DNA of 64,000 nt from the sequence record KX828711; one strand, 5' to 3'. Source of the stretch: Shigella phage SH7. Within the stretch, counting starts at the first letter, position 1. Every line of letters begins with the position of its first letter. A model generated the notes under the pieces. That model saw nothing but the letters and a program-made list of their open reading frames with translations, was not told where the DNA came from and did not search any database. This document shows, in pieces, positions 3,336 through 63,585 of the stretch. The position numbers were made by a program, and so were the translations under genes.

Positions 3336-3411
3336 TGGTCGAGGCAGTAGGGATCGAACCTACGACCTAGGACTTAGAAGGTCCTTGCTCTTCCTTCTGA
3401 GCTATGCCCCG
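3336..3411 (-). tRNA. tRNA-Arg (anticodon UCU)
   Basis: Hand-folded 76-nt cloverleaf: 7-bp acceptor stem, anticodon loop CUUCUAA, T-loop TTCGATC, CCA encoded. Confidence 0.8.
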
Positions 3412-3415
3412 TAAT

Positions 3416-3491
3416 TGGGGTGACCGATGGGAGTCGAACCCATGACTACGAGAATCACAATCTCGAGTTCTACCAACTGAACTACGGCCAC
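3416..3491 (-). tRNA. tRNA-His (anticodon GUG)
   Basis: 76-nt cloverleaf, anticodon loop UUGUGAU, discriminator C, CCA encoded; no encoded G at -1. Confidence 0.6.
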
Positions 3492-3604
3492 ATTAATACC
3501 TACTCCAACAATCAAGATGTCTTCACACGAAATTAAGAGAAGAGTGATCAGTTCAACCCCGATAATCGCGTCAAGTAGATATTAATGTGACAGTTGTCAC
3601 AAAT
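3492..3604 (-). other. 113-nt spacer inside the tRNA array with no cloverleaf; possible small stable RNA
   Basis: tRNA-sized gap between tRNA-Asn and tRNA-His; contains the inverted repeat TGTGACA-N2-TGTCACA next to the tRNA-Asn 3' end. Confidence 0.3.
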
Positions 3605-3680
3605 TTGGCGGACGTGATAGGATTCGAACCTATAACCAATCGCTTAACAGGCGATCGCTCTGCCATTGAGCTACACATCC
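3605..3680 (-). tRNA. tRNA-Asn (anticodon GUU)
   Basis: 76-nt cloverleaf, anticodon loop CUGUUAA, T-loop TTCGAAT, CCA encoded. Confidence 0.75.
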
Positions 3681-3684
3681 AAAT

Positions 3685-3771
3685 TGGTGGGGAGTGATGG
3701 AGTCGAACCACCCGAGTCGCAATGACAATGGATTTACAGTCCACACCGCTACCTCTACGGGATAACTCCCC
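3685..3771 (-). tRNA. tRNA-Tyr (anticodon GUA), long variable arm
   Basis: 87-nt type II cloverleaf, anticodon loop CUGUAAA, acceptor GGGGAGT/ACTCCCC, CCA encoded. Confidence 0.7.
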
Positions 3772-3784
3772 TTAATTCTTAATT

Positions 3785-3859
3785 TGGTGGCCCTAGGTGG
3801 AATTGAACCACCATCTGGCGATTATGAGTCGCTTGCTTGAACCTTCCAGCTACAGGGCC
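3785..3859 (-). tRNA. tRNA with CAU anticodon (Ile lysidine-type as in T4, or Met)
   Basis: 75-nt cloverleaf, anticodon loop CUCAUAA; sits at the position of T4 tRNA-Ile in the conserved order. Confidence 0.7.
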
Positions 3860-3860
3860 T

Positions 3861-3936
3861 TGGTGCTGATTGACGGAATCGAACCGCCGACCTTCTCATT
3901 ACAAGTGAGTTGCTCTACCTACTGAGCTAAATCAGC
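3861..3936 (-). tRNA. tRNA-Thr (anticodon UGU)
   Basis: 76-nt cloverleaf, anticodon loop CUUGUAA, CCA encoded. Confidence 0.8.
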
Positions 3937-3941
3937 AAAAC

Positions 3942-4031
3942 TGGCGGAGGCAATAGGATTTGAACCTATGAGTCGCCGGAGCGACTGCCGGTTTTCAAGA
4001 CCGGTGCATTAAACCACTCTGCCACGCCTCC
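3942..4031 (-). tRNA. tRNA-Ser (anticodon UGA), long variable arm
   Basis: 90-nt type II cloverleaf GGAGGCGTGGCAGAGTGG..., anticodon loop CUUGAAA; matches recalled T4 tRNA-Ser. Confidence 0.85.
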
Positions 4032-4033
4032 AG

Positions 4034-4107
4034 TCTCCATACAAGGATTTGAACCTTGGACCTCCTGATCCCAAATCAGGCGCTCTACCAAACTGAGCTA
4101 CACGGAG
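4034..4107 (-). tRNA. tRNA-Pro (anticodon UGG), CCA not encoded
   Basis: Cloverleaf CTCCGTGTAGCTCAGTTTGGTAGAGC..., anticodon loop UUUGGGA. Confidence 0.85.
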
Positions 4108-4117
4108 TAAATTAAAT

Positions 4118-4191
<74 letters not shown>

Positions 4192-4196
4192 AAATT

Positions 4197-4283
4197 TGGT
4201 GCGAGAAGTGGGACTCGAACCCACAAGGAAATCATTCCGCAGCATTTTAAGTGCTGTGCCTTTACCAATTTGACCATTCTCGC
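4197..4283 (-). tRNA. tRNA-Leu (anticodon UAA), long variable arm
   Basis: 87-nt type II cloverleaf GCGAGAATGGTCAAATTGG..., anticodon loop CUUAAAA, CCA encoded. Confidence 0.85.
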
Positions 4284-4284
4284 G

Positions 4285-4357
4285 CTGGGAATAAAGGACT
4301 CGAACCTTTGCATCCTGGAATCAAAATCCAGTGCCTTACCAACTTGGCTAATTCCCA
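4285..4357 (-). tRNA. tRNA-Gln (anticodon UUG), CCA not encoded
   Basis: Cloverleaf TGGGAATTAGCCAAGTTGG..., anticodon loop UUUUGAU. Confidence 0.85.
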
Positions 4358-4368
4358 ATTATTAACAA

Positions 4369-4386
4369 AGGCTCTTAAGCAAGAGC
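4369..4386 (-). other. hairpin GGCTCTT-AAGC-AAGAGCC between the middle promoter and the first tRNA
   Basis: 7-bp stem followed by T-rich run on minus strand; could terminate the upstream small-gene operon, attenuate, or mark a processing site. Confidence 0.35.
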
Positions 4387-4420
4387 CCTTGATGATAGAG
4401 GGTATTAATCAGTGCGATAT

Positions 4421-4458
4421 GAGTTAATAATAACAAATAATTCTTAAAGCATATTTAC
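4421..4458. repeat. repeat copy A of a 35-nt middle-promoter module (copy B at 63247-63285)
   Basis: 29 identical nt TTAATAATAACAAATAATTCTTAAAGCAT plus matching flanks at both loci. Confidence 0.6.
4427..4452 (-). promoter_or_regulatory. MotA-dependent middle promoter-like element upstream of the tRNA operon
   Basis: Minus strand TATGCTTTA (MotA box) then 12 nt then TATTAT; same module repeated upstream of gene 31. Confidence 0.5.
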
Positions 4459-4742
4459 CATTTATGATAATACATATTTACGATGCATTCAAGACCCAAA
4501 GGATTTTTGAAAATATCATATTCAAGAGGACCTTTTTCTGTTTCGATAAAGAAATCAAAATTTACTGTATTAAATTTACGGTCTTCCTTCACTAATTTAA
4601 CTTGTGAAGATGAACGGTCAATGTAAACCTTTTCAACTTCAAAATATGTTAAAATGCCATAATCATCAATCAAGGCTTTAGCTGCTTCTTGATCATATTT
4701 ATATCCATTTTCAATGGATGATACTTTCGCATAAAGAATCAT
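4455..4742 (-). CDS. hypothetical protein (95 aa from ATG; ORF-track start is a TTG two codons upstream)
   Basis: ORF track; in the variable tRNA-to-ipI interval. Confidence 0.5.
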   Translation of the reverse strand: MILYAKVSSIENGYKYDQEAAKALIDDYGILTYFEVEKVYIDRSSSQVKLVKEDRKFNTVNFDFFIETEKGPLEYDIFKNPLGLECIVNMYYHKW

Positions 4743-5312: not shown

Positions 5313-5340
5313 TTTATTCTCCTCGGTAGTTGATAGGGTA

Positions 5341-5370
5341 ATAGTATCACTACTAAAACCCTATGTAAAC
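5341..5370 (-). promoter_or_regulatory. T4-type early promoter-like element
   Basis: Minus strand GTTTACA, 17 nt, TGATACTAT. Confidence 0.45.
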
Positions 5371-5388
5371 AACTTTGTGAAATATTTA

Positions 5389-5676: not shown

Positions 5677-5708
5677 TTTTTATTTTCCTAATTAATTTTG
5701 ATGAGATA

Positions 5709-5738
5709 ATAGTATCACTACCTCATCAGCATGTAAAC
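5709..5738 (-). promoter_or_regulatory. T4-type early promoter-like element upstream of ipI
   Basis: Minus strand GTTTACA, 17 nt, TGATACTAT. Confidence 0.45.
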
Positions 5739-5750
5739 AACTTTGTGAAA

Positions 5751-6447
<697 letters not shown>

Positions 6448-37735: not shown

Positions 37736-37765
37736 GGGACCTTCGGGTCCCTTTAGTTGTTTTTA
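37736..37765 (+). terminator. rho-independent terminator after gene 23
   Basis: GGGACCTTCGGGTCCC hairpin followed by T-rich run. Confidence 0.7.
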
Positions 37766-39087: not shown

Positions 39088-39115
39088 AACAAAGGGACCG
39101 AAAGGTCCCCTTTGT
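39088..39115. terminator. bidirectional terminator between gene 24 and rnlB
   Basis: AACAAAGGGACC-GAAA-GGTCCCTTTGTT hairpin flanked by A/T runs, between convergent genes. Confidence 0.7.
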
Positions 39116-39119
39116 TTAT

Positions 39120-40614: not shown

Positions 40615-40682
40615 GTTATCGAGTTGATGCCATTATATACATCGTTTTCTGATTGTGTTTTGTGTGCTTTCAAAATGAAGAA

Positions 40683-40699
40683 AGGGGCCGAAGCCCCTG
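40683..40699 (-). terminator. hairpin GGGGCTTCGGCCCC after hoc
   Basis: GC stem-loop immediately 3' of hoc on the minus strand. Confidence 0.45.
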
Positions 40700-52711: not shown

Positions 52712-52733
52712 ATGGGGACCGAAAGGTCCCCAT
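52712..52733. terminator. bidirectional terminator between gene 54 and the alt block
   Basis: ATGGGGACC-GAAA-GGTCCCCAT hairpin flanked by T/A runs, between convergent genes. Confidence 0.7.
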
Positions 52734-52737
52734 ATTT

Positions 52738-53028
52738 TTATTTACGGAATGAAATAAAGGCAGCAACTGAAGCAACAGAGGTTTCTTCAATATAAACCTC
52801 AATTTTTACCGGAGCTTCTGACTCAAATTTACCTGTTACTACACCTTGGAAAATACTTTCAGTCTGTTCTGGCTTTGAAAAATTTTCAGAAGGAAAAATT
52901 CCAAACTTTTTATCGGTTCCGAAAATTTTAATAAATTCATCGTAAACTGCTTCATTAAAAGCATTATCAGCAGGAATAACGCCTTCAACTACAAGTTCTT
53001 GACCTAAAAAGCGCAAAGAAGATTTCAT
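52738..53028 (-). CDS. hypothetical protein (96 aa; T4 alt.-3 position)
   Basis: ORF track; GAGGAA RBS; early promoter-like element upstream; N-terminus MKSSLRFLGQE loosely CTS-like. Confidence 0.6.
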   Translation of the reverse strand: MKSSLRFLGQELVVEGVIPADNAFNEAVYDEFIKIFGTDKKFGIFPSENFSKPEQTESIFQGVVTGKFESEAPVKIEVYIEETSVASVAAFISFRK

Positions 53029-61148: not shown

Positions 61149-61162
61149 AGTATTTTCCTCAG

Positions 61163-61178
61163 TAAGGGGCCGAAGCCC
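61163..61178 (-). terminator. hairpin GGGGCTTCGGCCCC after ORF 61189..61554
   Basis: Third copy of this GC hairpin, at the 3' end of a minus-strand gene. Confidence 0.4.
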
Positions 61179-61188
61179 CTGTTTTATT

Positions 61189-61955: not shown

Positions 61956-61983
61956 TTTATTCTCCTTTGTTTGTGTAAGATAA

Positions 61984-62012
61984 TACTATCACAAAGGAAC
62001 CATACTGTAAAC
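61984..62012 (-). promoter_or_regulatory. T4-type early promoter-like element
   Basis: Minus strand GTTTACA, 17 nt, TGATAGTAT. Confidence 0.45.
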
Positions 62013-62065
62013 AACTTTATGCAATCTTTGGAAAATAAAAAAGGACTCCCGAAGGAGTCCTCAAC

Positions 62066-62884: not shown

Positions 62885-63220
62885 TCACTTATAAAGACAT
62901 GGAATAGCTTTATAGTGACAAGTAACGAATTTTTGTTTAATTTCTTTTGGCTGCTTAAGACCCAGAGCTACAAAAGGATGCGGAACATTTCGAATTTGAC
63001 CAACTGGAAGAGAAGTCAAATCACCAACTTCGCAGAAACCTTCAGGAACATCAGGACCGACAGAGTGAACTACACACAGTTCAGGAACTTCACCTTGAAC
63101 ACGTTTACCGATAATAAGTCCTGATTCTGTAACTTCTTCATCACCGGCTTGTGCAGGTTCAGAAACTAAAATAACATATTCACCGACAGCACGAATTGGT
63201 AGCTGTTGTACTTCAGACAT
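62885..63220 (-). CDS. 31: gp31 co-chaperonin (GroES functional analogue for capsid folding)
   Basis: 111 aa; [30 protein letters not shown]... recognised as T4 gp31. Confidence 0.95.
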
Positions 63221-63250
63221 CGTTTTTCCTTTTTGTTAACAGATGAATTA

Positions 63251-63277
63251 ATAATAACAAATAATTCTTAAAGCATT
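63251..63277 (-). promoter_or_regulatory. MotA-dependent middle promoter-like element for gene 31
   Basis: Minus strand AATGCTTTA then 12 nt then TATTAT; near-identical to the module upstream of the tRNA operon. Confidence 0.5.
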
Positions 63278-63585
63278 TATTTACCAATAAATTGAAGCAA
63301 ATGCTCAACTTTCATACCATTAACAGAAATCAATTTGTCAATAGAAAAACCTCGCCATGCACCAAGTTCAACATCAAATACTGGAATCATATCCGTAGAT
63401 TCTTTCCGAGTAGATTCAGTCAATTTACCAGTTTGCATGGTTGGCATAAAATCTGCATCACGAGTACCTTCCATAGTACGAATAGTACCATCAGACTTTT
63501 CAAAAACTACGTTTGAAACACCCATGGACAGTTTAGTTTTCAAAATTTCACGAATTGCTACTTTCTGCTCAGTTGTCAGTTTCAT
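63277..63585 (-). CDS. hypothetical protein (102 aa; T4 31.1 position)
   Basis: ORF track. Confidence 0.65.
   Translation of the reverse strand: MKLTTEQKVAIREILKTKLSMGVSNVVFEKSDGTIRTMEGTRDADFMPTMQTGKLTESTRKESTDMIPVFDVELGAWRGFSIDKLISVNGMKVEHLLQFIGK

Follow-up and report, generated by a model that had tools for sequence, protein, structure and literature searches.

In the 64,000-nt stretch of the Shigella phage SH7 genome analysed here (record KX828711; hereafter the window), one short sequence stands almost unchanged before the tRNA gene cluster and again before gene 31. The phage is a Tequatrovirus whose best matches are T4-like phages at 98-99% identity, and it differs from T4. The first-pass annotation had read both copies as a middle-promoter module on the minus strand and had favoured a duplicated or mobile regulatory cassette over convergent promoter evolution. 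The locus raises the question of why two promoters lying so far apart should be so alike, and whether the likeness reflects their promoter class, mobility of the sequence, or exchange between the two sites.

The repeat and its two promoters

The core of the repeat, TTAATAATAACAAATAATTCTTAAAGCAT on the plus strand, occupies 29 nt at 4424-4452 and recurs exactly at 63248-63276, its only two occurrences in the window. Aligned without gaps, 4419-4452 and 63243-63276 agree at 33 of 34 positions (repeat family D9). The likeness resumes beyond a 2-nt indel, where ATTTACCA on the plus strand (4453-4460) is found again after two extra bases at 63279-63286, giving the 8-nt TGGTAAAT that both copies have in common on the minus strand. 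The near-identity at two distant loci noted in the first-pass annotation is confirmed by these alignments; its positions were right, and its end points (4458 and 63285) fell 1-2 nt too short. The two copies are direct repeats 58.8 kb apart. No further match to TTAATAATAACAAATAATTCTTAAAGCAT with three or fewer mismatches was found in the window, and none of 100 dinucleotide-preserving shuffles yielded even one such match. Counting copies by a mismatch-tolerant scan gave two in the window and two in the complete T4 genome, where the 29-nt core is present with 0 and 1 mismatch; the next-best match differed at no fewer than 8 of 29 positions.

Copy 1 (4419-4460, minus strand; 34 nt ungapped plus the 8-nt TGGTAAAT) reads TGGTAAAT-ATGCTTTAAGAATTATTTGTTATTATTAACTCAT and sits between the stop codon of a trna.2 homologue and tRNA-Gln. 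That stop codon, TAA (4455-4457, minus strand), lies within the TGGTAAAT match. On the same strand follow the MotA box ATATGCTTTA (4445-4454, positions -34 to -25), which fits the MotA consensus, and a 12-nt spacer (4433-4444) whose last three bases form the TGn extended -10 element (TGT, 4433-4435). The -10 hexamer TATTAT occupies 4427-4432, and transcription is predicted to start at the A at 4420, in register with the T4 start at 72593. Behind the promoter lie 11 tRNA genes at 3336-4357 on the minus strand (Arg, His, Asn, Tyr, Met, Thr, Ser, Pro, Gly, Leu and Gln), of which tRNA-Gln (4284-4357, tRNA annotation) is transcribed first. In Mosigvirus and Dhakavirus, just Met and Arg tRNAs are found behind the same promoter and leader.

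The 62-nt leader from the PtRNA start to tRNA-Gln contains a stable hairpin (4366-4391, minus strand; -15.3 kcal/mol, z -3.3), followed by UUUGUUAAUAAU. The hairpin is part of the tRNA transcription unit and is absent from copy 2. No Rfam family matched it or the shared region. The leaders of Mosigvirus, Dhakavirus and the Gelderlandvirus-like contigs have equivalent hairpins with changed stem bases. This points to conservation of the structure, perhaps as a processing site or an attenuator.

Copy 2 (63243-63286, minus strand) reads TGGTAAATAA-ATGCTTTAAGAATTATTTGTTATTATTAATTCAT and lies between the stop codon of a 31.1 homologue (63277-63279, minus strand) and the ATG of gene 31 (63218-63220). 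Gene 31 (62885-63220, minus strand) encodes a GroES-like co-chaperonin of 111 aa, 100% identical to T4 gp31 records. All on the minus strand, the MotA box AAATGCTTTA (63269-63278, -34 to -25) overlaps the 31.1 stop, the TGn element (TGT) is at 63257-63259, and the hexamer TATTAT, again after a 12-nt spacer, is at 63251-63256. The A at 63244, in register with the T4 start at 131540, is the predicted start and would leave a 24-nt leader to the ATG; no stem-loop was found in this leader or upstream. At the P31 site of phage Lutter, the depositor's annotation reads "promoter".

At T4 middle promoters, sigma appropriation places AsiA on sigma-70, whose region 4 it remodels, and MotA on a box near -30; sigma-70 region 2 reads the -10 element. 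Such promoters generally have the box, the spacing and the -10 element seen here, with no -35 element and with TGn in about half of them. Both copies carry a box of the form (a/t)(a/t)(a/t)TGCTT(t/c)A near -30 relative to the predicted starts, a TAnnnT hexamer at 12 +/- 1 bp from the box, and TG at -15/-14, and the TGn is kept at both loci in most genera. The MotA box and -10 element proposed in the first-pass annotation are thus in place at ATATGCTTTA and AAATGCTTTA, with TATTAT 12 nt downstream of each. A consensus scan of the minus strand found no sigma-70 -35/-10 pair at either module, matching what is expected of MotA-type promoters. A promoter reading of the plus strand was rejected, the sole consensus match (63236-63265) being within chance expectation and the neighbouring genes at both sites lying entirely on the minus strand. 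AsiA-remodelled sigma-70, with MotA on the box near -30 and TATTAT as the -10 element, aided by TGn, would direct transcription to start at the A 7 nt on. In T4, motA and asiA lie at 161-163 kb, beyond the part of the genome covered by the window.

The same promoter pair is present at the same junctions in T4, where PtRNAE (PtRNAsc1; start 72593) and P31 (start 131540) are experimentally identified middle promoters (Hinton, 2010; PMC2988021, Table 1). The entries of that table credit the two starts to Guild (1988) and Nivinskas (1989). Both starts are an A exactly 7 nt past TATTAT, in identical register, and promoter features are absent from the T4 records AF158101 and NC_000866. Because the orthologous T4 sites are mapped middle promoters, the objection that no transcription start maps to either copy does not hold. 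By their sequence, the two copies are the MotA/AsiA-dependent promoters PtRNA and P31 already known from T4, with MotA dependence and start positions carried over from that phage; annotating them adds nothing categorically new, both elements having been mapped there earlier. The 29-nt core of T4 PtRNA is identical to that of copy 1, and T4 P31 is one spacer base off the window core (T-to-C), so that the two cores agree at 29 of 29 positions in the window against 28 of 29 in T4. Behind PtRNA, the window has 11 tRNAs without segB, whereas T4 has 8 together with the segB homing endonuclease gene. In T4, tRNA expression begins early and goes on rising (time-resolved RNA-seq, PMC9697503), a course that, in our own interpretation, would fit a TGn-containing promoter.

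A promoter sub-type across T4-like genera

The extent to which promoter class accounts for the likeness was gauged on 58 mapped T4 middle promoters (Hinton, 2010, table), taken from -50 to +15 in the T4 genome and compared in all 1653 pairs. T4 PtRNA and P31 agree at 34 of 42 positions, against a mean of 17.6 (sd 2.65) over all pairs and 28 for the next-best pair. Ordinary middle promoters share only the box and the -10 element, whereas PtRNA and P31 also share the spacer, the bases after the -10 element and the start region. Since the pair is an outlier among the 58, the supposition that many middle promoters carry the same 35 nt falls. Plain promoter consensus was rejected on this ground and on the genome-wide scans with their two copies, and the identity beyond consensus claimed in the first-pass annotation is upheld. 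This excess identity appears to consist mostly of a conserved sub-type signature, to which homogenisation in one lineage has probably been added.

The comparison covered about 12 T4-like lineages. For P31, it drew on Mosigvirus, Dhakavirus, Kanagawavirus, Jiaodavirus and Karamvirus records and 26 viral contigs; for the tRNA locus, on five genera and a census of TGCTTT-N10-TGnTATTATTA in viral contigs. A MotA-type promoter stands directly before gene 31 in every lineage sampled and before the first tRNA in nearly every one. The Karamvirus tRNA locus, where no clear promoter was found at the expected place, was left out of the comparison. The sub-type common to PtRNA and P31 can be written TGCTTTAAG-N7-TG(T/A)TATTATTAA-start, with variation confined to the 4-5 central spacer positions and the flanks. 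At the tRNA locus, the promoter reads TGCTTTAAGAATTATTTGTTATTATTAA in Tequatrovirus, ...TTATGTGTTATTATTAA in Mosigvirus and ...TTATGTGATATTATTAC in Dhakavirus, and the TGCTTTAAG / TGnTATTATTA frame recurs in five further lineages. PtRNA keeps TGCTTTAAGA(A/G)TTATGTG(T/A)TATTATTA in Mosigvirus, Dhakavirus and others; it is better conserved than P31, and across genera the tRNA-cluster promoter is among the most conserved middle promoters. P31 often retains TGCTTTAAG(A), TG(T/A)TATTATTAAT and T(C/T)(T/C)AT. On these sequences, TGCTTTAAG, TGnTATTATTAA and the start region are an old signature of both loci and not the trace of a recent duplication. The choice posed in the first-pass annotation between duplication and convergence is thereby only partly settled: the identity does extend beyond consensus, and much of it belongs to this old two-locus signature, against a recent duplication.

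The central spacer of P31 changes from genus to genus, reading TATT in Tequatrovirus, AGTA in Mosigvirus, AGCG in Dhakavirus, ATTCG and AACCA in two Gelderlandvirus-like contigs, and GTTT in others. Among the lineages compared, PtRNA and P31 have identical spacers in Tequatrovirus only; a second near-match of the two spacers (8/9) occurs in a Gelderlandvirus-like contig. Over 34 nt, within-genome identity between PtRNA and P31 is 31-33 in Tequatrovirus, 29-30 in Dhakavirus, 26-29 in the Gelderlandvirus-like contigs, 26 in Mosigvirus and 21-24 elsewhere. Tequatrovirus P31 agrees with Mosigvirus PtRNA at 32 of 34 positions, and with Tequatrovirus PtRNA likewise at 32 of 34; it agrees with the P31 of Mosigvirus and Dhakavirus at only 27-28 of 34, though the flanks are orthologous. 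Matches to the 37-nt P31 form were obtained in 966 records of the phage collection, 483 of them exact; among the matches listed, Tequatrovirus has two places per record and Mosigvirus one, namely PtRNA at one mismatch.

The Mosigvirus isolate AV113 (OR352943) carries a Tequatrovirus-type trna.2/PtRNA/tRNA-Gln region, 98% identical to the window over 1 kb and including TGGTAAAT and the TATT spacer. Its P31 is of Mosigvirus type (ATGCTTTACAAATAGTATAGTATTATTAATCTATC), as is its gene 31 region. AV113 is, from this arrangement, a mosaic created by recombination between genera, and its combination of a Tequatrovirus-type PtRNA with a Mosigvirus-type P31 shows that matching promoters are not required.

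Outside the window, the middle promoter of T4 gene 32 (P32, start 148057) is a distant third relative. It has GAATTAT(G)TGTTATTATTA in common with PtRNA and P31, as well as GAATTATgTGTTATTATTA, and its 19-mer GAATTATGTGTTATTATTA is identical to Mosigvirus PtRNA; it differs in that the shared stretch is shifted by one base against the MotA box, and in the box itself, which reads TGCTTAC. PtRNA, P31 and P32 may form a candidate sub-class of middle promoters. Separately, three contigs of 102-173 kb carry a promoter of the same architecture, TGCTTTAAAATAATGATGTTATTATTA, before a different gene whose product starts MKRIVV. This promoter may also belong to the sub-type, which would add a third locus, in another genus.

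Alternative origins of the shared sequence

A mobile or recently duplicated promoter cassette that copies itself to new junctions, in the manner of the PeSLs (promoter-early stem-loop cassettes), would account directly for two near-identical promoters. Mobile regulatory cassettes are known from T4-type phages (PMC2839356, PMC4122927), the presence/absence polymorphism of a 171-aa ORF falls exactly at the upstream edge of the PtRNA module, and the tRNA module, promoter included, has moved into the Mosigvirus AV113. PeSLs combine an early sigma-70 promoter with a GC-rich stem-loop, flank variable ORFs in many copies and form minicircles (Arbiol et al., 2010; Comeau et al., 2014). The present pair resembles them in being short repeated regulatory DNA with possible recombination homology, and in having a mosaic junction at one edge of the PtRNA module; it differs in consisting of two MotA-type copies whose syntenic sites are fixed and separated by 58.8 kb that include essential genes. 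A MotA box stands where the -35 element of an early promoter would be, and the copies have no common stem-loop, the hairpin lying downstream of copy 1 only. In place of many copies at varying junctions beside variable ORFs, there are two in T4, two in the window and, among the matches listed, two places per Tequatrovirus record. Exact and degenerate scans of viral contigs and metagenomes found no other junction; the degenerate architecture scan gave 118 matches, about two thirds of them unrelated sequences in other viruses. Moreover, across the lineages sampled, related promoters stand at these two syntenic junctions, which makes both promoter sites old. The mobile cassette of the first-pass annotation is not borne out by these two copies at fixed junctions, the only loci at which related phages were found to carry the module, and we regard such an origin as very improbable. 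The accompanying proposal that the pair could be a recombination substrate holds in a narrower form. With 58.8 kb and essential genes between the direct repeats, only non-crossover exchange can matter; a crossover between the copies would, judging from gene content, delete or duplicate baseplate, tail, head and replication genes.

Both loci could instead be held at the same optimum by function alone, as a strong sub-class or as the site of an extra factor, without any exchange. In its favour, PtRNA hardly varies between Tequatrovirus, Mosigvirus and Dhakavirus, about 500 Tequatrovirus records carry the module with next to no change, many genera have TGCTTTAAG and TGnTATTATTAA at both loci, and T4 P32 has GAATTATGTGTTATTATTA too. 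Set against this, almost every other genus keeps the P31 promoter but has a different spacer in it, so the central bases are not required; T4 tolerates the T-to-C change in its P31 spacer, AV113 is viable with promoters of two types, and TGGTAAAT, being coding in two different frames, is hard to ascribe to promoter function. Constraint as the whole explanation is therefore judged unlikely. Coincidence would demand less, namely that AT-rich promoters with a common MotA box, TGn, -10 element and start region should chance on the same 4-5 spacer bases. Most of the identity is indeed conserved sub-type signature, an AT-rich 4-5-mer could match by chance in one of about 10 lineages, the PtRNA/P31 finding was selected post hoc, and a permutation test (below) was not significant. 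Nevertheless, the pair lies 6 sd above the mean of T4 middle-promoter pairs, the likeness extends 8 nt upstream into coding sequence, the spacers come close to matching a second time (8/9) in the Gelderlandvirus-like contig, and variants at position -3 mirror each other across PtRNA and P31. Chance alone is, in our estimate, a decidedly unlikely source of the match. A function of the shared sequence at the RNA level was set aside, since a tRNA lies behind one copy and an mRNA leader behind the other, and no Rfam match was obtained.

Several other repeats were observed in the window. A family of 54-nt direct repeats has four members (1911-1964, 5330-5383, 5698-5751 and 61972-62025); on the minus strand these resemble T4 early promoters (GTTTACA ... 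TGATACTATTA), contain an internal dyad and are reminiscent of PeSL-type cassettes. Short GC-rich hairpin families (GGGGCCGAAGCCCC, GGGACCGAAAGGTCCC and CCCCAACCTTTCGGTCGGGG) recur between genes, at 326-346, 40679-40699 and 61161-61181; at 37736-37759, 39094-39117 and 52715-52738; and at 2070-2105 and 2625-2660. They are probably intrinsic terminators or RNA-stabilising stem-loops. In addition, the repeat pairs 53198-53247/55289-55338 and 54950-55149/57008-57210, spaced by about 2058-2091 nt with 73-97% identity, indicate a duplication of paralogous coding sequence. Their position matches that of T4 alt / alt.-1 / alt.-2, annotated in the T4 record as an old partial duplication.

Probable homogenisation in Tequatrovirus

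The explanation that we favour, and consider reasonably probable, is that PtRNA and P31 are promoters of one sub-type at fixed sites that were homogenised in Tequatrovirus, most likely by short-patch ectopic gene conversion or templated repair. Promoters that are paralogous, or at least of the same type, would have been long fixed at the two junctions across T4-like genera; in Tequatrovirus, the remaining free spacer positions would then have been converted to match between the loci, and the upstream 8 nt would have been transferred in the direction opposite to the spacer. The observations behind this proposal are that the spacer bases are the same in both Tequatrovirus copies, and that in T4 and SH7 the two copies have the upstream 8 nt in common as well. 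Homogenisation in this lineage, and short-patch gene conversion as its probable mechanism, are suggestive, not proven.

The two patches point in different directions. TGGTAAAT is coding at both sites in different frames, as Trp-stop in trna.2 and as Gly-Lys-stop in 31.1. Gene 31.1 natively closes with GGTAA(A/G)TAA (Gly-Lys-stop) in Kanagawavirus and Jiaodavirus, as it does in Tequatrovirus. In Dhakavirus and Kanagawavirus, by contrast, the end of trna.2 reads ...TACATTAATATGCTTT(A/T)..., and the stop codon lies within the MotA box or immediately past it. Being native to the end of 31.1, with other trna.2 ends differing, TGGTAAAT at the Tequatrovirus PtRNA looks P31-derived. The Tequatrovirus P31 spacer, for its part, looks to be of PtRNA type. 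A one-way transfer from PtRNA into P31 was dropped, both for the 31.1-native look of TGGTAAAT and for the equal distance of P31 from the Mosigvirus and Tequatrovirus forms of PtRNA.

The sole difference between the copies, the base at -3, varies between C and T at both loci, and the rarer allele at either locus is the commoner one at the other: P31 has C in 55 records, and PtRNA has T in 20 (13 + 7). This polymorphism could also reflect recurrent transition at one unconstrained site. In Citrobacter phage PhiZZ6 (MT176424 / NC_054900), the base is swapped at both loci, with T at PtRNA and C at P31; about 1.8 genomes with such a double swap are expected by chance, so that by itself it is not significant.

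A possible route is templated mutagenesis in T4, in which an imperfect repeat elsewhere in the genome templates multi-base changes; this and short-homology exchange are associated with Singer et al. (1982) and, reportedly, Schultz and Drake (2008). The link is one of analogy, the donor-recipient distance of 59 kb for PtRNA and P31 being greater than in cases described from T4. T4 recombination needs only small patches of homology, in the wording of Arbiol et al. (2010), who cite Singer (1982) on this point. For conversion of the spacer only, the flanking identity blocks of 12 and about 17 nt are very short for homologous recombination. Few sites are informative for conversion, namely 4-5 bases in the spacer, the 8 upstream nt and the single polymorphic position. 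Furthermore, TGGTAAAT is missing from the Tequatrovirus PtRNA allele with the 171-aa ORF upstream, which makes up about half of the metagenomic copies. In a permutation across nine lineages, promoters of the same genome were not significantly more alike than others (P = 0.07, and 0.21 without Tequatrovirus). Genus-wide concerted evolution was set aside on this result, and the claim of homogenisation is limited to Tequatrovirus.

The 171-aa ORF itself, which had no Pfam match, lies between trna.2 and PtRNA in some Tequatrovirus genomes but not in others, and Mosigvirus KAW3E185 also carries it. It terminates at the TAA that belongs to the MotA box TGCTTTAA, which puts the indel junction directly against the box.

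A bolder proposal, put forward tentatively and held to be possible though doubtful, is that PtRNA and P31 are kept alike by recurrent ectopic conversion and that, with P32, they form a deeply conserved MotA sub-class with an extra determinant. If this were true, the pair would be a natural reporter of minimal-homology exchange in T4-like phages, and the AAG after the box, TGnTATTATTAA and the start region would hold a determinant of recognition or strength that is missing from the current consensus.

Altogether, the pair indicates that a T4-like genome can carry two dispersed regulatory sites far more alike than function demands. Should ectopic conversion between such short sites be real, it would be relevant to the ways in which regulatory DNA is homogenised or exchanged in T4-like phages, and the two promoters would offer a simple experimental system, in which one copy is marked and transfer to the other is sought. 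Together with the conversion hypothesis, a sub-type signature longer than the published consensus represents a small, testable addition to what is known of middle promoters in these phages.
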